Part shown: piece after piece, positions 2,188-16,830 of the stretch
Position numbering within the stretch: the first letter of the stretch is position 1
Layout of the letters: each line of letters opens with the position of its first letter
NCBI GenBank assembly: GCA_041640655.1
Contig: JBEPZV010000033.1
Coordinates: 1 to 27,826, forward strand
Source: a bacterium
Lineage (GTDB): Bacteria; Acidobacteriota; Blastocatellia; HR10
Reading direction: 5' to 3'
Length of the DNA: 27,826 nucleotides
The notes under the pieces: generated by a model
Database searches by the model: none
What the model was told of the DNA's origin: nothing
Seen by the model: the letters and a program-made list of their open reading frames with translations, nothing else
Position numbers and translations under genes: made by a program

Positions 2188-3867
2188 TTAAAACGGCGGC
2201 TCTTGATATTCGCCGAAGACCTCCTTCAAGGCCTCGCAGATCTCCCCGAGCGTCGCATACGCGCGCACGCACTCGAGGATATACGGCATCGTGTTCTCGG
2301 TGCCGCGCGCGGCCTCCTTCAAGGCCTCCAGCGCGCGCCGCACCTTCGTGTTATCCCGCCGCGCGCGCAGGCGCCGCAACCGCTCCTTCTGGATCTCCGC
2401 CACCGACTCGTCAATGTAGAGGATGGGGACCTCGACCGGCTCCTTCTCGACCACGTATTCGTTGACGCCGACGATGATCTTCTCCCGCCGATCCACGGCC
2501 TGCTGATAGCGATAGGCCGCCTCCTGGATCTCTTTCTGTGGGAAGCCTCGCTCGATGGCGGCGATCATCCCTCCCATGGCGTCAATCTTCTCGAAGTATT
2601 CGTAGCAGCCCTGCTCCATCTCGCTCGTCAACTTCTCGACGAAGTAGCTTCCGGCCAGGGGATCCACCGTGTTCACGACCCCCGATTCATGCGCGATGAT
2701 CTGCTGCGTGCGGAGCGCGAGCATGGCCGTGAATTCCGTGGGCAGGGCCAGAGCTTCATCGAGGGCATTCGTGTGTAGGCTCTGCGTCCCCCCGAGCACC
2801 GCCGCCAGGGCTTGAATCGTCGTGCGCACGACGTTGTTGTACGGCTGCTGCGCCGTCAGACTGCATCCAGCCGTCTGCGTGTGGAACCGACACATCCAGG
2901 AGCGCGGATCGCGCGCGCCGAATCGCTCCCGCATGACGCGCGCCCAGACTTTGCGCGCCGCGCGGAACTTCGCGATCTCCTCGAAGAAGTCATTGTGGCA
3001 ATTGAAGAAGAAGGAGAGCCGCGGCGCGAATTCGTCCACGTGCAACCCCGCCTGAACACACCACTCGACATACTCGATCCCATCGCGCAGGGTGAACGCC
3101 AGTTCCTGCAACGCCGTCGAACCCGCCTCGCGGATGTGATAGCCCGAGATCGAGATGGGATGCCAGCGCGGCACCTCCCGCGTGCAGAAGGCGATCGTGT
3201 CCACGATCAACCGCATCGAGGGCCGAGGGGGATAAATCCACTCCTTCTGCGCGATGTATTCCTTCAGAATGTCGTTCTGGATCGTCCCCGAGATCTTCTT
3301 CCAATCCGCGCCTTGCTTCTCGGCGACCACCAAATACATGGCGAAGATGACGGCCGCCGGCGCATTGATCGTCATTGAGGTCGTCACCTCTTCAAGCGGA
3401 ATGCCGTCGAAGAGGACCTCCATGTCCTCGAGGCTGGAGACGGCCACGCCGCACTTCCCCACTTCGCCTTCGGCCAGGGGATGATCCGAATCCAGCCCCA
3501 TAAGCGTCGGCAGATCGAAGGCGACCGAGAGCCCCGTCTGCCCTTGCTCCAGGAGATACCTGAACCGCTTATTGGTGTCGAAGGCCGTGCCGAAGCCAGC
3601 GAACTGCCGCATCGTCCAGAGCTTCCCCCGATACATCGTCGGATGAATGCCCCGCGTGAACGGATACTCGCCGGGGAAGCCAATGTCCCGCTCGAAGTCG
3701 AGATGCTGAATGTCGAGCGGCGTGTACAACCGCTGGATCGGGCGCAGCGAGGTCGTCGTGAACTCCGCCGCGCGCTCGGGCAGACGCGCGAGCGTCGGCT
3801 TGAGCGTCTGTTCCTCCCATCGGGCGAGGGCTTCCTCCAGATGGCTGGTGGCTTCTCTCGTCGTCAT
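2188..3867 (-). CDS. icmA: B12-dependent acyl-CoA mutase large subunit (methylmalonyl-CoA mutase family), probably isobutyryl-CoA mutase
   Basis: Motifs [56 protein letters not shown] and GGTQSLHTN. Start set at ATG 3867 after a GGGGGAG RBS. The Phe/Gln specificity pair matches ICM. Confidence 0.85.
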
Positions 3868-3925
3868 AGATCTCCCCCTTCCCTGACGTCGGAGTGTAAA
3901 TGGTAGGGCAGCGCGCCAGACAGTG

Positions 3926-5185
3926 TCAAACGCTCGGCCAACGCGCGTCGCGCGCCTCAGATCCAATTCGCCCGAGCAGAGCGGCGCTCCTCGCGATGCG
4001 TTCCTCGAGCGAGCGGGCGTGAACCCATCGCGCCCAGGTGGCGAGCGCCCCGAAGAACAGGAAGCTCACGCCGTAATCGGCCAGCGAGAGATCGAGCCGT
4101 CCGGCTTGAACCGTCGCGAGGATGAGCCCACCAATGATGGGGAACGCGAGTATCAATGTCCCATCTCGAAAGAGAGCCTTCACGTCGGCATGCGCCCGCG
4201 CACGGGCGAGCGCATACCCCCCAGCCACCAGCGGGAGGAGAAGGCCCGCGTGAGCGAGGATCCCCTCGAAGCGCGCGAACTTGTTCTGCATGAGGAAAGG
4301 CGAAAGCCCATGCGGATCGTGAAGGGCGAAGGGAAGCGTGACTCCCACAAGAACACCGCTGGCGAGCCCCACAAGCCCAAGCGCCGATCGCCGCCCGATC
4401 TTCCGATCCAGCAAGACGTAGACAAGTGGGATCAAGAGCACGAAATTCACCCGCCACGCCCATGCGAGCCCCAGCAGGAGAGCCACGACCGGTCTCCACC
4501 GACAAGAGGCGCCAAGTAACAGCCAACAGAAGGTCAGGACAGCGATGCTGTTGGCCGGGAGGTCGCCACCGGTGATGATCTGCTGCAGGAGGACAGGGGA
4601 GAACAGCAGAAGGCTCCACAGCAGGAGCAGTGCCTGCCGGGTATCGCCCAGGACCTCTCGCGCGACCAGGAAGAAGATGGCCAGCCAGAAGAAATTCTGA
4701 TAAGCGCTGTTCCCCAACACGACGAAGGGGAGGGAGAGCAGGAGGCCTCCGGGGAGCGGAGCGATCGGATTCCCTAAGTAGGTGGTGACGTGGTACGGGC
4801 ATCGTCCTTGAAGAAGCTCTCGGGCGCCGAGGTTCAAGGCATCGTCGCGGTCACCCCCGCCACCGATGATCCCCGCATCGGCTATGGGATAAAGGGCGGA
4901 GAAGAGTATAAAGAGCACGAGCCCTGTCGCCAGGGCGAGTCCGCAAGCCCAACGTTCCGGCACGAGAGCTTCCACCTTGCGCAGGAGCCGATGCGCGACG
5001 CTCCAAAATCCCAAAACCAGGAGGACGTAGAAAAGCGTCCCCCACATCCCGACATATTTCTGCACCTGTCCCAGGGAGGGGACGACGAGAGTGAAGCCCA
5101 CCCCAAGGGCCATGTATTCACCACGGCTCCGCAGGCCCGCCCACTTCTGCGGGAACGTCCGCGGCAGAGCCGAGCGCCACCTCAT
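3926..5185 (-). CDS. Polytopic membrane protein, possibly a GT-C fold glycosyltransferase (GT87-like)
   Basis: About 10 hydrophobic segments, with an acidic loop DRDDAL...LLQGRCPY...PLPGGLLL after the N-terminal helices. Start uncertain (5191/5185/5113). Confidence 0.55.
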
Positions 5186-5210
5186 GCGCACTGTCCGCGC
5201 GGAGGGAGAC

Positions 5211-6428
5211 TCATGCTCCAGCGAACCGATTCGGAGCCGTTCGGATCGGACAGGTCCTCACCGATCCGAGCCCGGAGGTCGAGCAATCTACAGCTCCATC
5301 GGCATTGACCGGCAAGCCAGTTCCCCCTCCCGCCGGCCCCGCGCAGTTTGATCCCGCGGCTTCAGGGCACGTGGAATTGCCGGGAGCAGGGTCTTCAGCT
5401 GAATCCGGCCCTGTGCTCGCTCCCCAGTAGTTATTCCGCGCGTCCAACGTATAGGTCCCCCCGGCGAAGTAGAGTCCCACAGCACCGGCGACGCGACACG
5501 CAGCCAGACCCGTGCACGTGATGTTGTTGTCGTTGATCACAGGAGGCGCTGTCCCGCTCGATGTCGTCGTATCTACCGCGATCCCGACGCCATTATCCTG
5601 AAGGTGATTGGCCAGGATCTTGCTCCCCGGCGAACCATCCACGAGAATCCCCGTGCCGAAATTCAAGATCGTGTTGCGCTGTACGGTGACCCCAGTACTC
5701 CCCGGATTGAGCAGGATCCCCACCGCTCCTCTCCCCAGGTCTCCTCCATCCAGGACATTCCGCTCGATCACGACCGAACTCCCCGATGGGATATCCGAGA
5801 CGATGATCCCAGCCGTCACATCGCTCCCGACGCGATTCCCGCGCACGATCGCCTGCAACGGCTGAGCGCCTCGACCATCAACGAGGATGGCCGCACTCAC
5901 CAACTGATTCGTGATCTGATTCCCCTGGATGAGGAACGGTCCTCCGAACTCATTCACCAAGGCGATACCGGAGAAGAGCGCCGATCGGTCACGTCCGACG
6001 AGCCGACAATCCCGCACAGTCAGGGGACGCCCACTATCGCCGGAGAGAATGCCGTAACACCCGGGGGGAACTTCGATCGTGATCCCGACGATCTGAACGC
6101 GCCCCTGCCGGCCTCGCGCATCAATGACGGCCAGATTCGGCGGGCACGTCTCCAGGGTGATCACTGCGGGGATCCCCCCATTCGCCTTCCCGATCAAGGT
6201 GACCCCACCAGGGGCCAGGGAGAAGTTCACAGCCCCCTCGACCTTCCCAATGACCAGCAATGTGTCCCCATTTCGCGACTGCGCTAAGGCCTCATTCACC
6301 GTCGCATAGGTCCGCCGCAACCGCGGGTTGTACACGCGTCCTGTTCCCTGCGTGAAGACGAGCCCCGGCAGGATGAGCCCGCCCAGAATCCCCACCACCA
6401 TCAACCACGCGAACACGTTCGACCGCAT
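5211..6428 (-). CDS. Secreted right-handed parallel beta-helix (pectin lyase-like) protein
   Basis: AGGAGG RBS before ATG 6428; signal peptide; 'YATVNEAL...GDTLLV' N-cap; repeated I.GN.I / V.RN.I rungs; LDARNNYWG motif; Cys-rich C-terminus. Confidence 0.75.
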   Translation of the reverse strand: MRSNVFAWLMVVGILGGLILPGLVFTQGTGRVYNPRLRRTYATVNEALAQSRNGDTLLVIGKVEGAVNFSLAPGGVTLIGKANGGIPAVITLETCPPNLAVIDARGRQGRVQIVGITIEVPPGCYGILSGDSGRPLTVRDCRLVGRDRSALFSGIALVNEFGGPFLIQGNQITNQLVSAAILVDGRGAQPLQAIVRGNRVGSDVTAGIIVSDIPSGSSVVIERNVLDGGDLGRGAVGILLNPGSTGVTVQRNTILNFGTGILVDGSPGSKILANHLQDNGVGIAVDTTTSSGTAPPVINDNNITCTGLAACRVAGAVGLYFAGGTYTLDARNNYWGASTGPDSAEDPAPGNSTCPEAAGSNCAGPAGGGTGLPVNADGAVDCSTSGLGSVRTCPIRTAPNRFAGA

Positions 6429-6610
6429 GATCGTCCACCTCCTTTCCGAAAACGTTCGCTCGCTCCGGCACATGCGCGCGCACACGCGCCGACGACTTCA
6501 GCTTGTCATCCGCACGACACCCAGCATGGGAATGCGGACGAGGACATGGCCCCGAAGATGACTTCTCAAAGAGCTTCTCCCGCGACTCCGCACTGTTGTC
6601 GCTATCGGCG

Positions 6611-6639
6611 AGTGTAGTCGAAGTGGAAAGCCCTGTCAA
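6611..6639 (-). promoter_or_regulatory. Sigma70-type promoter for the beta-helix gene
   Basis: On the minus strand, TTGACA (6639-6634), a 17-nt spacer and TACACT (6616-6611). Confidence 0.65.
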
Positions 6640-6696
6640 GCCGAGGTTAGAACCGCTGTCCGCTCGCTACGGTCGGAGCCTCCAGCACGCGTGACG

Positions 6697-6725
6697 TTGA
6701 CAACTCGCAGGAGGGAGCCTATGAT
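6697..6725 (+). promoter_or_regulatory. Sigma70-type promoter for the tRNA-Pro/acyP/apt unit
   Basis: TTGACA (6697-6702), a 17-nt spacer and TATGAT (6720-6725), 16 nt upstream of the tRNA. Confidence 0.8.
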
Positions 6726-6741
6726 TGTGAATCTGCTGTAT

Positions 6742-6819
6742 CGGGGCGTAGCTCAGCCTGGTGAGAGCGCACGGTTCGGGACCGTGAGGTCGGTGGTTCA
6801 AATCCACTCGCCCCGACCA
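6742..6819 (+). tRNA. tRNA-Pro (anticodon CGG)
   Basis: Acceptor stem CGGGGCG/CGCCCCG, D arm GCTCAGCCTGG, anticodon arm CACGG-TTCGGGA-CCGTG, GTTCAAATCC T loop and encoded CCA. Confidence 0.97.
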
Positions 6820-6840
6820 GTTCTTGTTCTTTCTTTTCTT

Positions 6841-7116
6841 ATGCGCATTGCGCGCCGCTTTTTGATCAGTGGGATTGTGCAAGGTGTGGGCTACCGATAT
6901 TTCGCCCTCCGCGCGGCCGAACGCCATGGGATCGTCGGCTACGTGCGCAACCTGCAGGACGGGCGTGTGGAGGTGGTCGCCGAGGGCGAATCCGAAGCCA
7001 TGGAGGCCTTCAAACGCGAATTGTATCGCGGCCCGGCCGCGGCTCGCGTGACGCATATTGTCGAAGAGGTTCTTGAGCCGACGGGTCGCTATCCTCATTT
7101 CGGCGTCGCCTATTGA
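6841..7116 (+). CDS. acyP: Acylphosphatase
   Basis: Motifs GIVQGVGYR and [17 protein letters not shown]...GP.AARV. The true start is ATG 6841; the ORF-track start overlaps the tRNA. Confidence 0.93.
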
Positions 7117-7154
7117 GACGGCCGCCCGAGGAGAGCGCGAGCGGAGTGACGTTC

Positions 7155-7676
7155 ATGGAGAGACTCAAACGCCTGATCCGAGAAATCCCGGATTTCCCCA
7201 AACCCGGCATCCTCTTCTACGACATCACGACGCTTTTGAAAGATCCCGAGGGGTTCCGCACGACGGTGGATCTGCTCTCGGAAGCGTTCGCGGGCGAGCG
7301 CGTCGATCGCGTCGTCGGCATCGAAGCGCGCGGATTCATCTTCGCGCCCGCCCTGGCCTATAAGCTCGGCGCCGGCTTCATCCCGATGCGCAAGTCGAAT
7401 AAACTCCCGGCTCCCACCGAGAGTGTGACCTACACGCTCGAATACGGAACCGATCGCCTGGAGGTTCATAAAGATGCCATCGAACCGGGCCATCGCGTCC
7501 TGATCATTGACGACCTGTTGGCGACGGGAGGGACGGCGAAAGCGGCGATCGAATTGGTGGAGAAGCTCGGCGGACACGTCGTCGGCGCGGGATTCGTCAT
7601 CGAGTTGGAGTTCCTCAAAGGACGCGAGCGGCTGGCTGGCTATCGTGTCGTCTCCCTGCTAAAATACCCGTCGTGA
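7155..7676 (+). CDS. apt: Adenine phosphoribosyltransferase
   Basis: Motifs [28 protein letters not shown] and the PRPP loop [11 protein letters not shown]. Confidence 0.96.
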
Positions 7677-7680
7677 CGGT

Positions 7681-7754
7681 GCTCCCGTAGCTCAGTTGGA
7701 TAGAGCGAGCGCCTCCTAAGCGCTAGGTCGCAGGTTCGATTCCTGCCGGGAGCA
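7681..7754 (+). tRNA. tRNA-Arg (anticodon CCT), CCA not encoded
   Basis: Acceptor stem GCTCCCG/CGGGAGC, anticodon arm AGCGC-CTCCTAA-GCGCT and GTTCGATTCC T loop. Confidence 0.95.
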
Positions 7755-7783
7755 TTTTCTCCTATCGGCGGATAAGGATGTCC

Positions 7784-7868
7784 TCATTCCACGGTGACCG
7801 ATTTGGCGAGGTTTCGGGGTTGATCCACATCGCAACCGCGTCGCCGCGCGATGTGATAGGCCAGAAGC
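7784..7868 (-). repeat. 85-bp direct repeat, copy 1: detached glmS 3' end ([27 protein letters not shown])
   Basis: Identical to 8664-8748 except one synonymous change (7787 vs 8667, GAA/GAG in the last Glu codon). Confidence 0.95.
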
Positions 7869-7914
7869 GGCGGCGGGGCGATGACCAACCGTGAGGGGAC
7901 CGCTGGCATGCCAC

Positions 7915-8298
7915 TCACCTCGTGGTGATCTCCAAAATGCCGACTGGATAATCAATCACGGTTCGAAAGTGCCTCAGGAAGCTCAAGCCGAGCAACCCCT
8001 CGATCCCGGCCAGCTCAGGAATGTCATGGCAGACGACGTCAACGCCTCGCACGGATAACTCCGCCACATGAATGGCTTCCACAGTGATCAACGGCGCCTC
8101 GATGACCCCATTGGCGGTGATGATCGGCATCCGGCGTTCGGAAACAGCCGGATCGTACCCGATGTCCTTGGCGACATCCCAGGCGATGACCGTGTAAACC
8201 GCGCCTGTGTCCACCAATACGTCAATTTCGCGAATACCCGAGGGACCACAGATCGCCACCCGCCTCAAGACGATAGGGATGGTCAGAGGCACCTGCAT
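7915..8298 (-). CDS. Retropepsin-like (clan AA) single-domain aspartic protease
   Basis: Catalytic LVDTGA motif, flap-like ITANG and C-terminal GLLGLSFL. Confidence 0.88.
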
Positions 8299-8522
8299 CA
8301 GAGGATCACCGCATAGCCGGGCTTCACCACAGGGCCTGCGAAAGTGATGTACGCCCGCTCCACCTTCTTCTCCCGAAGCTTCCGATGGAGCTCTCTCCGG
8401 TCGGGATCATGAGCGATCACGTGACCGAGCACTTCTCCGGTAGGGGTCTCCTCACTGACCAAAAAGGCCAGCCACTGGCCAGCATACTGTCGCTTCGCTT
8501 GCTCTAAGCTCACCTTCTCCAC
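8298..8522 (-). CDS. Small hypothetical protein (about 74 aa, DUF5678-like), translationally coupled to the protease
   Basis: GTG start at 8522 after GGGAG; 'Y.GQWLAF...VIAHD.D..EL' pattern; TGATG stop/start overlap at 8300-8296. Confidence 0.7.
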   Translation of the reverse strand: MEKVSLEQAKRQYAGQWLAFLVSEETPTGEVLGHVIAHDPDRRELHRKLREKKVERAYITFAGPVVKPGYAVIL

Positions 8523-8663
8523 ACTTCGCTCTCCCGGCGGGTAAGGTAACATGCATCGGCGCCGTGACTCAAGGGAGAGCGCGCTGTTCTCAACCCGCTC
8601 TCAAGGCGACAGGCCCATCTGACACCGAGTGGGGAGCCGAGTCTTCCTCATCGAGCGCCCCGT

Positions 8664-8748
8664 TCACTCCACGGTGACCGATTTGGCGAGGTTTCGGGGT
8701 TGATCCACATCGCAACCGCGTCGCCGCGCGATGTGATAGGCCAGAAGC
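8664..8748 (-). repeat. 85-bp direct repeat, copy 2 (the 3' end of intact glmS)
   Basis: Matches 7784-7868 at an offset of 880 bp. Confidence 0.95.
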
Positions 8749-10490
8749 TGCAATGGGATGATGGCCAATAGCGGCAGCAGCCAGCGATGCGCCGAGGGGA
8801 TGGCCAGAATCCGCGCTCCCGCCTCCTCCCGACAGGCCCGAATGGCCTCCTCATCCTCCTCATTCACCACCGCGATCGCCGGTGCGCCGCGCGCCCGTAC
8901 CTCCAAGAGATTGGCGAACGTCTTCTCGTACAGCACCCGCCCCAACTCCTCCCTCCGATCGTACGGCAACAGCACCACGACGGGCAGTCGCTCCTCCAGC
9001 AGCGCATTCACCCCATGCTTCATCTCCCCGGCCGCGCACCCTTCTGCGGGAATATAGCTCAGCTCCTTCAACTTCAATGCCCCCTCCAGCGCGATCGGAT
9101 ACAACACCCCTCGCCCCAGATAAAGCACATGGTGCGCCCGCCACAATCGCCGCGCCAGCTCGGCGATCTCCCCCTCCCGCTCCAAGATCCGCTCCATCCG
9201 CAGGGGCAGATGCGTCAACTCGTGCAGTCGCTCCCGTACCGCCGCCTCCGTCAGCGCCCCTCGCTGCCGCCCTAATTCCAGCCCGAGCCGCAGCAGCATC
9301 ACCATTTGAGCCACAAAGGTCTTGGTGGCCGCCACTCCAATCTCTGGCCCGGCCCGCGTTCGCATCACCATGTCGGCCTCTCGCTCCGCGCTCGATCCCG
9401 GCACGTTCGTCAGCGCCACCACGCGCGCTCCTCGCTGCTTCGCCTCCCGCACCGCCCCTAGCGTATCGGCCGTCTCCCCCGATTGCGTAATCGCCACCAC
9501 CAGAGTCTTCGCCCCCACCACCGGCCGCCGATACCGAAACTCGCTCGCCACCTCCACCTCCACTCGCACCCTGGCTGCTTCCTCTATCACATACTTCCCG
9601 TACAGCCCCGCATGATAACTCGTCCCGCAGCCCACCAGCACAAGCTCCTCCACATCCTCCAGCCGAATCTCCTCGTACGCGCTCGCCGTCTCTCGCACCA
9701 CGCGCGGCTGCTCGTGAATCTCCTTCAACATGAAGTGGGGATACCCCCCCTTCTCCACCCACAGCGGATCCCACCCGATCCGCTCCACCCGCAGAGGACG
9801 TTCCCGACCCTCCTCGTCCCATACTCGAACGCCATCGGGTCTGAGCTCCACCAGCTCCCCATCCTCCAGCACCCGCACCCGCCGCGTGAAAGGCACAAGA
9901 GCCGCCATATCCGAAGCCACCCACGCCTCCCCTTCCCCTACGCCGATGACCAACGGCGCTCCCCGTCTCACCCCCACCACGACCCCAGGTTCTCCTGTCC
10001 ACACCAGCGCGAAGGCGAAAAGCCCCTCCAGCCGCGCTGCCGCTCGCCGCACCGCCTCCGAAAGCGAGGCCTTCCTCAGCTCCCGCTCCACCAGATGCCC
10101 GATCACCTCCGTGTCCGTCTCCGATATGAACCGATGTCCTTCTTGCTCCAACTCACGCCGCAGCGCGAGATAGTTCTCGATGATACCGTTGTGCACCACC
10201 GCCACTTGTCCCCTACAATCCCGATGTGGATGCGCATTCTCCTCGGCCGGCCGCCCGTGTGTCGCCCACCGCGTATGCCCCACGCCAAAGGTCCCCTCCA
10301 TCGCGCGCCCTTCCAGCACTTCCTCCAACTGCCGCACCTTTCCCACGACCCGAACCACCTCTAATCCCCCTCGTTCATCCCCCACGGCTATCCCCGCCGA
10401 ATCATACCCTCGATACTCCAGGCGCCGCAGCCCTTCCAACAGCACGGCCACGGCCGACCGGCTCCCCGTATATCCGATGATCCCGCACAT
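8664..10490 (-). CDS. glmS: Glutamine--fructose-6-phosphate aminotransferase (isomerizing)
   Basis: N-terminal MCGIIG (catalytic Cys), EYRGYDSAG, GHTRWATHG, HNGIIEN, QSGETADT, EGALKLKE and C-terminal [11 protein letters not shown]. Confidence 0.97.
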   Translation of the reverse strand: MCGIIGYTGSRSAVAVLLEGLRRLEYRGYDSAGIAVGDERGGLEVVRVVGKVRQLEEVLEGRAMEGTFGVGHTRWATHGRPAEENAHPHRDCRGQVAVVHNGIIENYLALRRELEQEGHRFISETDTEVIGHLVERELRKASLSEAVRRAAARLEGLFAFALVWTGEPGVVVGVRRGAPLVIGVGEGEAWVASDMAALVPFTRRVRVLEDGELVELRPDGVRVWDEEGRERPLRVERIGWDPLWVEKGGYPHFMLKEIHEQPRVVRETASAYEEIRLEDVEELVLVGCGTSYHAGLYGKYVIEEAARVRVEVEVASEFRYRRPVVGAKTLVVAITQSGETADTLGAVREAKQRGARVVALTNVPGSSAEREADMVMRTRAGPEIGVAATKTFVAQMVMLLRLGLELGRQRGALTEAAVRERLHELTHLPLRMERILEREGEIAELARRLWRAHHVLYLGRGVLYPIALEGALKLKELSYIPAEGCAAGEMKHGVNALLEERLPVVVLLPYDRREELGRVLYEKTFANLLEVRARGAPAIAVVNEEDEEAIRACREEAGARILAIPSAHRWLLPLLAIIPLQLLAYHIARRRGCDVDQPRNLAKSVTVE

Positions 10491-10557
10491 CGCTCCCTCG
10501 CCAAAAGCACACTCACTGTACCGGCAGGGACTCACCGCGTCAAGAACGGGATCCACC

Positions 10558-11580
10558 TCAGCGAGTCGAAAAGAGTTGAGGGCGCCGTTCCTGCATCCGA
10601 TCCCGAAGCTCGCTCTCCATGAGGCGGCGATGGTGAGCGATCACGCGCTTCAGGATCTCCTCAAGACGAACCATCGGCCGGTACCCGATGAGCGTCCGAA
10701 TCTTGGTGAGATCGGGCACGCGCCGCGGCATATCCTCGAAGTCCTCCCCATAGATCCGATCATACGGGACGAAGACGACCTCCGACGAACTTCCGGTCAG
10801 TGCTTTGATCCGCCAGGCGACATCCACAATGCGCACCTCCTCATCGCTCCCGACGTTGAAGACCTGCCCCACAGCTTCCGGATGTTCGGCCAGAGCCGCC
10901 AGAGCGCGCACCACATCCCCCACCCAGCAGAAGCTCCGCGTTTGCCGCCCATCTCCGTGCACGGTGATCGGCTCCCCACGCAAGGCCTGCCGGACGAACG
11001 TCGGAATGACCATCCCGTAACGATTCGTCTGCCGCGGCCCGACCGTATTGAACAGCCGAACGATCACCACCGGCACCCCATACGTCCGCCAATACGCCAG
11101 AGCGAGAAACTCCCCCAATGCTTTCGAGCACGCATAGCCCCATCGGGGCCGCCACGTCGCCCCCAGGACCAGATCATCGTCTTCCCGAAAGGGCACCTTC
11201 GAGGTCTTGCCGTACACTTCGCTCGTGGAGGCGAACAGCACCTTCTTCCCCCTGGCCGCCGCCATCTCCAGGACGACCTCCGTCGCGCGCACGTTCGTCT
11301 CCATAGCCCGAATGGGCTCCTCGACAACAAGCTTCACTCCGACAGCCGCTGCCAGATGAAAGATGACGTCCGCCCACTCCACCAGCTCTGCCATGAGCCG
11401 ACGATTCAGGACGGTGTCCAGAACGAATCGGAATCGCACCTCCGATTCCAAATGCGCGATGTTCGCCAGGTTCCCCGTCGAGAGATCATCAATGACGGTC
11501 ACCGCATGACCGGCGCGCAGCAATTCCTCGGCCAGATGGGAACCGATGAATCCAGCCCCTCCCGTGATCAAGCAGCGCAT
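10558..11580 (-). CDS. NAD-dependent nucleotide-sugar epimerase/dehydratase (extended SDR)
   Basis: Motifs TGGAGFIGSH, STSEVYG, YACSK, RLFNTVGPRQ and G.QTRSF. Confidence 0.92.
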   Translation of the reverse strand: MRCLITGGAGFIGSHLAEELLRAGHAVTVIDDLSTGNLANIAHLESEVRFRFVLDTVLNRRLMAELVEWADVIFHLAAAVGVKLVVEEPIRAMETNVRATEVVLEMAAARGKKVLFASTSEVYGKTSKVPFREDDDLVLGATWRPRWGYACSKALGEFLALAYWRTYGVPVVIVRLFNTVGPRQTNRYGMVIPTFVRQALRGEPITVHGDGRQTRSFCWVGDVVRALAALAEHPEAVGQVFNVGSDEEVRIVDVAWRIKALTGSSSEVVFVPYDRIYGEDFEDMPRRVPDLTKIRTLIGYRPMVRLEEILKRVIAHHRRLMESELRDRMQERRPQLFSTR

Positions 11581-11762
11581 ATCGGCATCCCTCCTTCATC
11601 AGCGCGAGCAGTCTTTATCGCATGGAGTCAGAGGAGAGAGCGCGCCCGAACTGCTGCCCATCGGGCGCCCTTCGTATTTCCTCCCCCTTCACATGTTTCA
11701 GCGGAAAGGGACCGCCGTGATCGGCGCGCTTCCCCGCATCTTCCGATCTCTCTGCGACCGAC

Positions 11763-12905
11763 TCAGGACGCGCCGGACGACAAGGTGCCGAGTGCGCGCC
11801 CGCATCGGCGATTCCGAACCGAGTGGAAGACCTCCTCCAGTTTCAATCGAACCCTCGCCGGAGCGTGAACCGTGAGATAGCGTCGCCGCGCGTTCTCCTG
11901 GAACTGTCGGAGCAAAGCGCGATGGGTGATCAAGACGTCGAGCCGCTCGACCAATCCTCGAATATCCCCGGGTGCGACCGTGAACCCCACCTCCGCATCG
12001 GGGAAAAGCTCCGGCAACGGATCGAAGTTCGAGACGATGACGGCGCACCGATGGGCCATCGCCTCAACAGCGGACAGGGCATACGTATCGGCATGTGTGG
12101 GCAACACGAAAAGATCGGCGTCGCGCATCAGCTCGAGCACGCGCTCATGGGGGAGCGGAGGATGAATCCGAATCCCCTGCGCCCGCAACGAATCGTTCCG
12201 CTTCTTCCAATCCTCCGACGCTCGCGTCACGACCTCCAGCCGAAGATGGGGATGCTTCCTCCTCACCTGCTCGTAAGCTCGCAGCAGCTCGGGCAGCCCC
12301 TTCAGGATAGGATCGAGCCCGACAAACAGCAACCGGATGATCCCGTCCGTCTGCGAGGGTTTCCATTCGACATCTCGCGAAGGAGCGATGACCGGGACCG
12401 GAACGACGTGGACTTTCGCCTCCAGTTCAGGGCACCACCGGAGGAGAGTCCGCGCCCCGGATTCCGTGGCGATCAGCAACGCATCCGCCCGCGGGCCGAG
12501 CAGGCGATAGAGGAAAACGACATCCTCCAGGGTCCATCGCCCGCCACCTTCGTAATACGGCGCCGGCACAATTCCCTGCGAGCTCCAGATCACGGGGACA
12601 GGCGGCTGCGGGAACGGAAAGCAGATATGAGAGAGGATGAGATCCATGTCGCGAGCGGCGCCCGGAGGAAGAACGAGCGCGCGAGCGGCGACATGAAGCA
12701 TCTGCCGAACGCGCGCCGGCTCCCACGTTCGGGCGAGCTTCTCGCACGCTTTTCGCACAACGGCTTGCGCCCGCCGCCGCCACGATGAGGGGAGCAGGTG
12801 GAACCGGAGACGCTCGTCGCTCAAGCGCATCCAGTTTCGATAGAGCGCGAGATCGCCTCCCGGTCCGTGAAGCTCTCCGGCCGTCACGTTCAACAGGACG
12901 CGCAT
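11763..12905 (-). CDS. Glycosyltransferase family 4
   Basis: LLFVG...KGLPELL and ADLFVLPT..DTYALSAVEAMA. Confidence 0.85.
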   Translation of the reverse strand: MRVLLNVTAGELHGPGGDLALYRNWMRLSDERLRFHLLPSSWRRRAQAVVRKACEKLARTWEPARVRQMLHVAARALVLPPGAARDMDLILSHICFPFPQPPVPVIWSSQGIVPAPYYEGGGRWTLEDVVFLYRLLGPRADALLIATESGARTLLRWCPELEAKVHVVPVPVIAPSRDVEWKPSQTDGIIRLLFVGLDPILKGLPELLRAYEQVRRKHPHLRLEVVTRASEDWKKRNDSLRAQGIRIHPPLPHERVLELMRDADLFVLPTHADTYALSAVEAMAHRCAVIVSNFDPLPELFPDAEVGFTVAPGDIRGLVERLDVLITHRALLRQFQENARRRYLTVHAPARVRLKLEEVFHSVRNRRCGRALGTLSSGAS

Positions 12906-12914
12906 GGTCGGTCG

Positions 12915-16830
<3,916 letters not shown>

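Follow-up and report, generated by a model that had tools for sequence, protein, structure and literature searches.

Transposon Tn7 inserts downstream of the glmS stop codon, where it makes a 5-bp duplication and brings its tns genes, and it is the conserved DNA encoding the GlmS C-terminus that makes this site recognisable and safe. Integrase-less units flanked by attachment (att) sites and tied to a known recombinase family are represented by the cis-mobilizable elements of streptococcal ICEs (integrative and conjugative elements) as well as by the pseudo-staphylococcal cassette chromosomes (pseudo-SCC) at rlmH, while the gene cassettes of integrons include toxin-antitoxin cassettes in chromosomal arrays. 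The paper by Furuta, Abe and Kobayashi 2010 (PMC2853133), which cites Nobusato et al. 2000 (Gene 259:99), describes restriction-modification systems that were inserted with a long target duplication and without other mobile elements, the repeats being 46-423 bp long and often lying across the start or stop of the target gene, and it suggests double-strand breakage by the restriction enzyme as the cause. The study by Kirchberger et al. 2017 (PMC5361080) ascribes orphaned 3' gene ends in Rhs, contact-dependent inhibition (CDI) and type VI secretion system (T6SS) effector-immunity loci to homology-facilitated illegitimate recombination, for which de Vries and Wackernagel 2002 and Prudhomme et al. 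2002 are cited. The window analysed here, i.e., the whole stretch of 27,826 nucleotides (nt) from contig C33 of host genome G000 (an assembly of 3.13 Mb, 89.8% complete), contains a two-gene module, encoding a predicted aspartic protease and a small companion protein, which was inserted at the 3' end of glmS, is bracketed by an 85-nt duplication of the glmS tail and holds no recombinase gene. We assign a probability of roughly 55% to the reading that it arrived by an integrase-free, homology-driven insertion with long target duplication, through host recombination on the glmS tail.

The last 85 nt of glmS are present twice in direct orientation, at positions 7784-7868 and 8664-8748, 880 nt from start to start, and the two copies are identical at 84 of the 85 positions. 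The single mismatch, at nt 4, reads TCATTC in the distal copy and TCACTC in the copy attached to glmS, the last codon being GAA in the former and GAG in the latter, both of which specify Glu. The insert between the copies measures 795 nt and consists of two overlapping minus-strand genes, with non-coding stretches of 111 nt and 46 nt only. Read from glmS towards the tRNA gene, the features of the locus are as follows:

8664..10556, minus strand: glmS, encoding glutamine--fructose-6-phosphate transaminase, intact at 630 amino acids (aa) (TIGR01135, 763 bits; NF001484, 788 bits; Pfam SIS and GATase).
8664..8748, minus strand: proximal repeat, the functional glmS tail of 27 codons plus stop, which ends in GAG and is followed by insert DNA.
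8553..8663, minus strand: leader of the insert, 111 nt from the glmS stop to the first ATG of the companion gene.
8298..8552, minus strand: companion gene, 84 aa from its first ATG.
7915..8298, minus strand: gene for the predicted clan AA aspartic protease, 127 aa, whose start overlaps the companion stop (TGATG).
7869..7914, minus strand: trailer of the insert, 46 nt, the last 24 nt of which (7869-7892) are diverged, in-register glmS-like sequence.
7784..7868, minus strand: distal repeat, the displaced native glmS tail, which ends in GAA and runs on into the native spacer and tRNA-Arg.
7756..7783, no strand: native spacer, 28 nt from tRNA-Arg to the original glmS stop; the alignment gives the same spacer, with a few differences, in congener G002.
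7680..7755, plus strand: tRNA-Arg(CCT), the undisturbed right-hand neighbour, which is not duplicated (ARAGORN; Rfam RF00005, 72.6 bits).

Recombinase or mobility domains were not found in the insert, nor was there an integrase match on contig C33, and the five Pfam Phage_integrase matches of the genome (tyrosine recombinases) are located on contigs C1, C4, C6 and C12; as the genome is 89.8% complete, the absence of an integrase is unproven. The locus occupies the same neighbourhood (attTn7) as Tn7, from which it differs by its 85-nt duplication and by the lack of tns genes in the two-gene insert, while a search for the TniQ family returned no match, yet gave none in any control genome either. 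Elsewhere in the 3.13-Mb assembly the 85-mer has no further copy, apart from a 79% match that ends a second glmS paralogue on contig C18. The original prediction, which had been made from the window sequence, is borne out in these respects by the coordinates, the alignment and the open reading frames (ORFs): it had described an 85-nt glmS-tail duplication with one synonymous difference and a two-gene module within 880 bp, had called the cassette integrase-less and no normal Tn7 insertion, and had raised the matter of further glmS-tail copies in the genome, which come to just the two and the diverged C18 end.

With regard to the non-coding parts of the locus, a scan for sigma-70-like promoters returned 0 sites, the Rfam scan revealed nothing besides the two tRNAs, and no repeat array was detected in window 5000-11000, while two terminator-like sites inside the companion gene are at about chance level. 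The insert has a GC content (0.58-0.60) close to that of the left flank (0.60-0.62), and composition is therefore no marker of foreignness. The leader contains an imperfect 12-nt inverted repeat (8575-8586 / 8591-8602), a possible operator or RNA hairpin. Furthermore, the displaced tail sits in a 44-aa ORF (7784..7918, minus strand), the GTG start of which overlaps the protease stop (GTGA), and this ORF may act as a third translated cistron in the module.

The insertion is real, and neither an assembly artefact nor a chance resemblance. All six congeners compared (G001-G006, against window 6600-10600) possess an empty site, at which the left flank and glmS of the window align onto overlapping positions of one tail, and in which the spacer from the glmS stop to the tRNA-Arg 3' end measures 2-30 nt. 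In G002, for example, the alignments of window segments 6600-7888 and 8664-10600 share 105 nt. The distal copy and the spacer represent native sequence, the spacer and TCATTC, which includes the last codon, matching G002 and G005. The filled structure is present, with both tail copies, in L070, a locus on a metagenome contig of 1.25 Mb; over 8386 columns that are collinear with window 12292-3917, L070 is 96.96% identical. Public sequencing runs, which were consulted as Logan contigs or unitigs only, agree with this structure: the unitig depths in run X7 are 144.7 for the flank, 149 for the element, 283.4 for the repeat and 143.9 for glmS, i.e., 1x, 1x, 2x and 1x, and the element also occurs in runs X3, X4 and X6. 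Run X7 has the appearance of data from one organism, with an allele of the L070 type.

These data also bear on the explanation that no mobile event took place, and that the structure reflects a tandem duplication or slippage of the glmS end, a decayed tandem paralogue or a mis-assembly. In genome G379 the glmS tail is indeed duplicated in tandem, over 130 nt and with no cargo, which lends this explanation some substance, but the DNA between the window's copies is foreign: the protease is present in three of the 401 genomes of the phylum sample, which includes the window's own genome, itself one of the three, and its sole close copy in the host genome is the one described here. (The 401-genome tallies count G173, G053 and G077, which are flagged as unpublished and on which no other claim is built.) Moreover, the glmS homology ends after approximately 24 nt, the congeners are empty in six of six cases, and the filled structure is borne out by independent assemblies as well as by unitig depths, so that we regard this explanation as very improbable. 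The non-autonomous insertion of the original prediction, together with the empty site that it expected in relatives (glmS stop approximately 30 bp from tRNA-Arg), is upheld in all six congeners; an assembly artefact, a case on which it had called for a check, is contradicted by L070 and the X7 unitig depths, and the decayed tandem glmS paralogue that it had named as a refuting case does not apply, there being some 24 nt of weak extra similarity and no further glmS remnant.

Two apparent irregularities in the sequencing runs were set aside, namely a lone 'joint' from 7834 to 8911, which belongs to the second glmS paralogue, and a gap in the X4 cover at 7457-7627, which proves nothing. This second, diverged paralogue (56% identical; G000:C18:38929-40827) is likewise found in G001-G005, and the frame of the C18-type paralogue is open for approximately 1140-1176 aa if one TGA is read through.

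A comparison of the window with L070 discloses how the two tail copies have changed since their separation. The sequences differ at 8715/7835 and at 8694/7814, in each case in both copies together; at these two positions L070 has the state of G002 and G005, and in L070 the identical block extends 5 nt beyond its edge in the window. The tail copies thus evolve in concert by gene conversion, and because they do so their near-identity says nothing on the age of the insertion. The insertion is older than the split between the window lineage and L070, and it is absent from the 94%-identical G002. Past the 85 nt, the distal copy continues to match glmS in register at 14 of 24 nt (36 of the 55604 24-mers of the window do as well), this extension reading LVIAPPP where glmS reads LAIIPLQ. 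At 58% identity to host glmS, the extension cannot be a recent copy of that gene, and a simple target-site duplication or tandem duplication was excluded on the ground that the extension is too diverged from it. Either the incoming DNA had a foreign glmS tail, or the extension is old, decayed sequence imported with the module. In addition, the proximal copy has GAG where the distal copy, G002 and G005 have GAA.

The decayed appearance of this extension, with PPP in place of the conserved PLQ, would fit a long history elsewhere, and raises the alternative that the tail-module-tail arrangement arose long ago in a diverged relative and entered the ancestor of the window and L070 ready-made, by allelic replacement through a double crossover; the local sequence would then be silent on the original mechanism of insertion. 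Both flanks are at the ordinary 94% identity to G002, and the insertion predates the split of the window and L070, as such an import would allow. However, no donor lineage was encountered among the 6 congeners, the 401 genomes of the phylum or the 100 loci of the protease-companion pair that were fetched with their flanks, both crossovers would need to fall in or right beside the 85-nt blocks, and an import of this kind only relocates the question of origin. We consider it unlikely.

Homology-driven insertion at the locus itself receives support from a similar case in the same genome, recovered in a genome-wide scan for direct repeats of 40-600 nt spaced up to 6 kb. On contig C3, repeats of 58 nt (9824-9881 and 10681-10738; L161:1825-2739), 93% identical and spaced by 857 nt, surround a toxin-antitoxin-like module, made up of a DUF433-like gene and a DUF5615-like gene with a frameshift, at a site that is empty, with one copy, in G002. 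A diverged copy of the target makes up the inner arm of the right-hand copy (44 nt at 86%, equalled in 0 of 2000 shuffles), while the P' and B' arms of this case are not significantly similar in free local alignment (263 of 2000 shuffles). A further pair of repeats, C1:11825-11907 / 16271-16353, was rejected as an att pair, the repeat corresponding to two paralogous integrase genes.

The glmS tail has also been duplicated in other members of the phylum. Upon scanning for the conserved coding pattern of the tail, close same-strand pairs were identified in three further genomes among the 401, none with an integrase in its insert:

G211 (L177, contig C12): copies 2414 nt apart, 123 nt at 77%, with three lipoprotein-like ORFs between them.
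G315 (L179, contig C39): copies 1038 nt apart, 61 nt at 84%, with repetitive non-coding DNA.
G379 (L178, contig C3): copies 130 nt apart, 50 nt at 100%, with no cargo.

The congeners of G211 are too diverged for an empty-site comparison.

The protease-companion pair itself has spread widely by horizontal transfer. It occurs at 70-86% protein identity across phyla, in metagenome-assembled genomes (MAGs) and mostly on short contigs, the hosts being, by MAG name, Chloroflexota/Anaerolineae, Deltaproteobacteria, Thermodesulfobacteriota, Bipolaricaulota and Acidobacteriota, as well as Tepidanaerobacteraceae, WOR-3, Spirochaetales, Methylomirabilota and Altiarchaeales. The companion is encoded directly upstream of the protease in 96 of the 100 fetched loci. 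Nucleotide similarity between the window and these relatives ends at the coding ends, without conserved non-coding ends. The flanks contain 138 ORFs that reach 170 aa or more, and these include a single Phage_integrase, as well as three transposases of the IS200-like type and one of the DDE type. In L094, an integrase is located approximately 2.4 kb from the pair. A tblastn search with the protease (E <= 1e-10) recovered no copy in 72,556 plasmids or 50,697 phages, and none in viral contigs.

The genomic surroundings of the pair show a recurring theme, in that, by impression, it very often lies inside polysaccharide-biosynthesis clusters (DegT, Bac_transf, Polysacc_synt_2, epimerases, GT4, GT1 and UDP-GlcNAc 2-epimerase). 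Such a context was seen in L051, L055, L056, L063, L068, L072-L074, L093, L096, L105, L110, L115, L116, L119, L134, L135, L141 and L148, where the pair is often beside other toxin-antitoxin pairs (AbiE, HepT/MNT, PIN and DUF3368). Just past glmS in the window, at 10558-12905, come an epimerase gene and a glycosyltransferase-like ORF, the latter named from sequence only.

To what extent the pair is bracketed by repeats elsewhere was assessed by searching for direct repeats of at least 40 nt located no more than 700 nt away on both sides of the pair, with shifted positions within the same loci serving as control. Bracketing repeats were present in 12 of 45 loci, which represent 12 out of 34 contexts with distinct flanks (11 out of 33 if L070 is set aside), as compared to 1 of 81 control positions. 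The bracket sequences differ between loci, extend over 40-430 nt at 80-100% identity, and in some instances are 5' fragments of genes. For example, in L073 a DegT aminotransferase gene is represented upstream by a 151-aa 5' fragment and downstream in full (431 nt at 90%); L074 has an epimerase gene upstream and a 3' fragment of it downstream (296 nt at 86%); and in L055 three 3' fragments of a Bac_transf sugar transferase gene surround the pair and a second small-protein/protease pair. These gene fragments have the topology expected if a resident gene and a partial copy of it, brought in from outside, undergo a single crossover. The brackets of L056 and L066 are dispersed repeat families of the host.

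L055 is the most elaborate of these arrangements, three or four orphaned Bac_transf 3' fragments alternating with cassettes across L055:3500-9064; its second pair, at 3852-4490, comprises a small protein and a DTGF-type aspartic protease and is different from that of the window. Heptamer-like direct-repeat runs, resembling either AAACCA[AG]AT or CTCGTCTAT, were observed beside the pair in L051, L053, L054 and L056, loci of unrelated MAGs.

In L051 (genome G417), the brackets are the junction repeats of a cassette-like array, the copies that flank the pair being 96% alike and approximately 75% like the others. The window's module resembles an integron cassette in being a promoter-poor unit of approximately 1 kb, without mobility genes, that is distributed across phyla and has some relatives in arrays; it is unlike one in that no intI gene is present on C33 and in that the flanking repeat is host coding sequence. 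When the ends of the insert were inspected for attC, with no attC covariance model used, the trailer was found to be without an inverted repeat and the leader to have the 12-nt imperfect one, while the junction repeats of L051, examined by eye, lack classical attC core sites. In the same genome, L160 (G417:C51:20000-39999) contains a 17-kb array of toxin-antitoxin-type cassettes, nearly all junctions of which have a conserved hairpin motif and a GGGGACAGGCT box that by eye is likewise not classical attC. True integron integrases (> 400 bits) are encoded on other contigs of G417, which has two such genes, and of G419. Among the relatives of G417, a search for the empty site of L051 found only neighbouring genes, and no orthologous empty site was found for L056 and L066 among the relatives of G420 and G418, respectively.

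According to the preferred reading, DNA from another organism, in which a glmS tail already lay beside the module, would have entered the cell, and the general recombination machinery of the host would have paired the incoming tail with the resident one. The incoming molecule may have been circular or concatemeric and have undergone a Campbell-type single crossover, or it may have been a linear fragment joined by homology-facilitated illegitimate recombination; the two routes fit the locus equally well and would require no element-encoded or dedicated site-specific recombinase. The expected outcome is an intact glmS whose last codon and downstream DNA derive from the insert, with the original tail shifted to the tRNA-Arg side. 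Gene conversion has afterwards kept the two tails alike, and the tails could in principle also recombine with one another, so that the module is deleted or is freed as a circle of approximately 880 bp, which could repeat the entry at any similar tail. A pair of the addiction or defence type would, furthermore, help a module without mobility genes to persist. A route through homologous recombination fits best because the pair is elsewhere bracketed by unrelated host sequences and has no common att site, and it is favoured also because the C3 module and the three other glmS-tail duplications show the integrase-free pattern.

Among known systems, the long target duplications of restriction-modification systems are alike in that a small selfish complex is surrounded by long direct repeats (85 bp here), in that an intact target gene is spanned at its stop, and in that the repeats can later recombine. 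As in the definition used in PMC2853133, the repeats of the window exceed 30 bp and align to a single empty-site copy, and the insert is below 20 kb and free of mobility genes. The locus is accordingly a variant of long target duplication that lies outside the restriction-modification set, since its cargo is a protease with a small partner. Unlike those insertions, this cargo holds no nuclease or methylase, the conserved glmS tail has been targeted recurrently in the phylum, and the inner arm has diverged homology to the target and thereby suggests pairing with a foreign homologue. A protease cargo without a nuclease argues against DNA breakage made by the cargo, and for host recombination on conserved sequence. 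Among the titles listed for the term 'long target duplication', none is on toxin-antitoxin-like cargo. The Rhs, CDI and T6SS loci provide a second parallel, in which a conserved stretch anchors the incoming DNA and displaced 3' ends remain downstream, as does the glmS tail in the window and Bac_transf in L055; in the window, by contrast, the resident gene was restored exactly, the cargo is no allele of the target, and the process is one read from sequence.

The anatomy of the locus is, at the same time, that of classic 3'-end integration, with the gene restored by element DNA, the original end displaced and direct repeats of 85 nt, and similarity stops exactly at the stop codon on one side. 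It could accordingly represent an integrative element in miniature, or what is left of a larger, stripped island, whose attP contained a glmS 3' end and whose tyrosine or serine recombinase acted in trans or was lost, and the unit might still be excised or accreted by such a recombinase. The five tyrosine recombinase matches of the host genome, the integron integrases of the pair-bearing genomes G417 and G419, and the integrase approximately 2.4 kb from the pair in L094 are all in keeping with this possibility. Against it, neither an integrase nor pseudogene debris is present in or beside the insert, where the non-coding DNA amounts to the 111 nt and 46 nt already mentioned, and no integrase-bearing element occupies the site in the six congeners examined, nor does one in G211, G315 and G379. 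Furthermore, one att specificity cannot account for the unrelated brackets found elsewhere, 5' gene fragments included; the pair has no conserved non-coding ends; the repeat of the C3 case, which lies in this genome too, is another one; and the concerted changes and the shifting edge of identity point to general recombination on the repeats. A site-specific origin is therefore possible, but we rate it as considerably less probable than homology-driven insertion. The cis-mobilizable and pseudo-SCC elements show the corresponding mixture, being alike as non-autonomous units at a conserved gene 3' end with direct repeats and a possible circle, and unlike in that no such element or recombinase was found at the glmS site in the genomes examined. 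The locus was not classed as a cis-mobilizable element, an integron cassette or a Tn7 insertion, because in each comparison a tested defining feature was lacking.

Of the three routes named in the original prediction, homologous recombination is thus the one that fits best, whereas integration by a trans-acting recombinase and descent from a larger element are less supported; copies of the pair flanked by gene-end duplications, to which it had also drawn attention, are indeed seen in L073, L074 and L055.

Several observations weigh against homology-driven insertion. The bracketing signature is frequent and not universal, 22 of the 34 contexts being without a bracketing repeat, and a donor with the pair beside glmS is absent from the 100 fetched loci, among which L070 alone has this arrangement. 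The glmS-like extension is short and significant in the fixed-register test alone: in free local alignment the P and B arms of the glmS case are not significantly similar (524 of 2000 shuffles as good), and the leader arm and the native spacer (P' and B') have no similarity beyond chance (289 of 2000 shuffles). As the leader arm is unlike the native spacer, the evidence for a foreign incoming tail comes down to 24 nt and one codon. PMC5361080 reports that recombination of the homology-facilitated illegitimate kind is rare, and a homology of 85 nt, probably diverged, is a poor substrate for RecA-type recombination. No recombination intermediate was seen in the contig-level data, the reach of which does not extend to circles or empty-site minorities. 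Finally, as the pair occurs in cassette-like arrays and two such genomes have integron integrases, site-specific routes may also move it.

As regards the cargo itself, the larger protein is, by its profile matches and active-site motif, a clan AA retropepsin-like aspartic protease. It matches PF13975 (1.6e-15, 57.9 bits against a cut-off of 28.2), PF13650 (2.7e-14) and TIGR02281 (59.5 bits against a cut-off of 57.95), and its profile matches the Ddi1 retropepsin domain at 2e-3. The active-site motif is D30-T-G-A33, in which D30, G32 and A33 are invariant in 29 sequences. The protein furthermore matches PDC-M08B, a candidate defence protein of PADLOC, at 1e-10.

The companion, for which 163 homologues were found, is 84 aa long here, as opposed to approximately 74 aa in its relatives, and an in-frame GTG is present at 8520-8522. 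Its match to Pfam DUF5678 (PF18929) has an E-value of 1.2e-3, under the cut-off of that family, a protein atlas offers a DUF5678 lead at 0.79 and nothing more, and searches of NCBIfam, PADLOC and PHROGs with the companion produced no match. The AlphaFold2 (AF2) model is a small alpha/beta fold (mean predicted confidence, pLDDT, 73.6) with a conserved and poorly modelled C-terminal tail, and Foldseek comparison of this model to the PDB returned no match at E <= 1e-3. A complex of two protease copies and one companion was predicted with a score of 0.90, the best of three controls scoring 0.00; the 0.90 mark is reached by 116 of 157 solved complexes and by 2 of 215 mismatched pairs, a calibration that is rough here, since the alignments were our own and the complex has three chains. 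The contacts agree to at least 96% between three runs, with a partner pLDDT of at least 84, and they involve, among others, companion residues 64-84 and residues 30 and 32-35 of both protease copies, i.e., the catalytic site. In this prediction the companion binds the protease dimer and places its conserved C-terminal tail close to the catalytic aspartates, where it would act as inhibitor or substrate.

The pair, with its overlapping genes, its linkage in 96 of 100 loci and its predicted complex, is a candidate type II toxin-antitoxin system and is most likely an addiction- or defence-type module. Literature searches yielded nothing on DUF5678 that bears on the companion, and nothing on retropepsin-like proteins in prokaryotic toxin-antitoxin systems.

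How toxin-antitoxin-like and defence modules spread between distant genomes without mobility genes is poorly understood. The locus indicates that the long target duplication route also carries nuclease-free cargo, and it draws attention to an uncharacterised, widely transferred protease pair that matches a candidate phage-defence family, as well as to the glmS tail, the known Tn7 target, as a recurrent landing site for integrase-free insertions. It is conceivable, if rather doubtful, that the pair is a pan-phylum selfish module which would carry along or acquire a piece of adjacent conserved or repeated host sequence, would use it as its homology anchor for entering the corresponding place in another genome, would leave as a circle of approximately 1 kb and would be kept by addiction or defence. 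If so, long target duplication would represent a general, recombinase-free life cycle of addiction modules, rather than one particular to restriction enzymes, for which conserved gene ends, such as the glmS tail, and motifs of polysaccharide genes would be the preferred landing pads.

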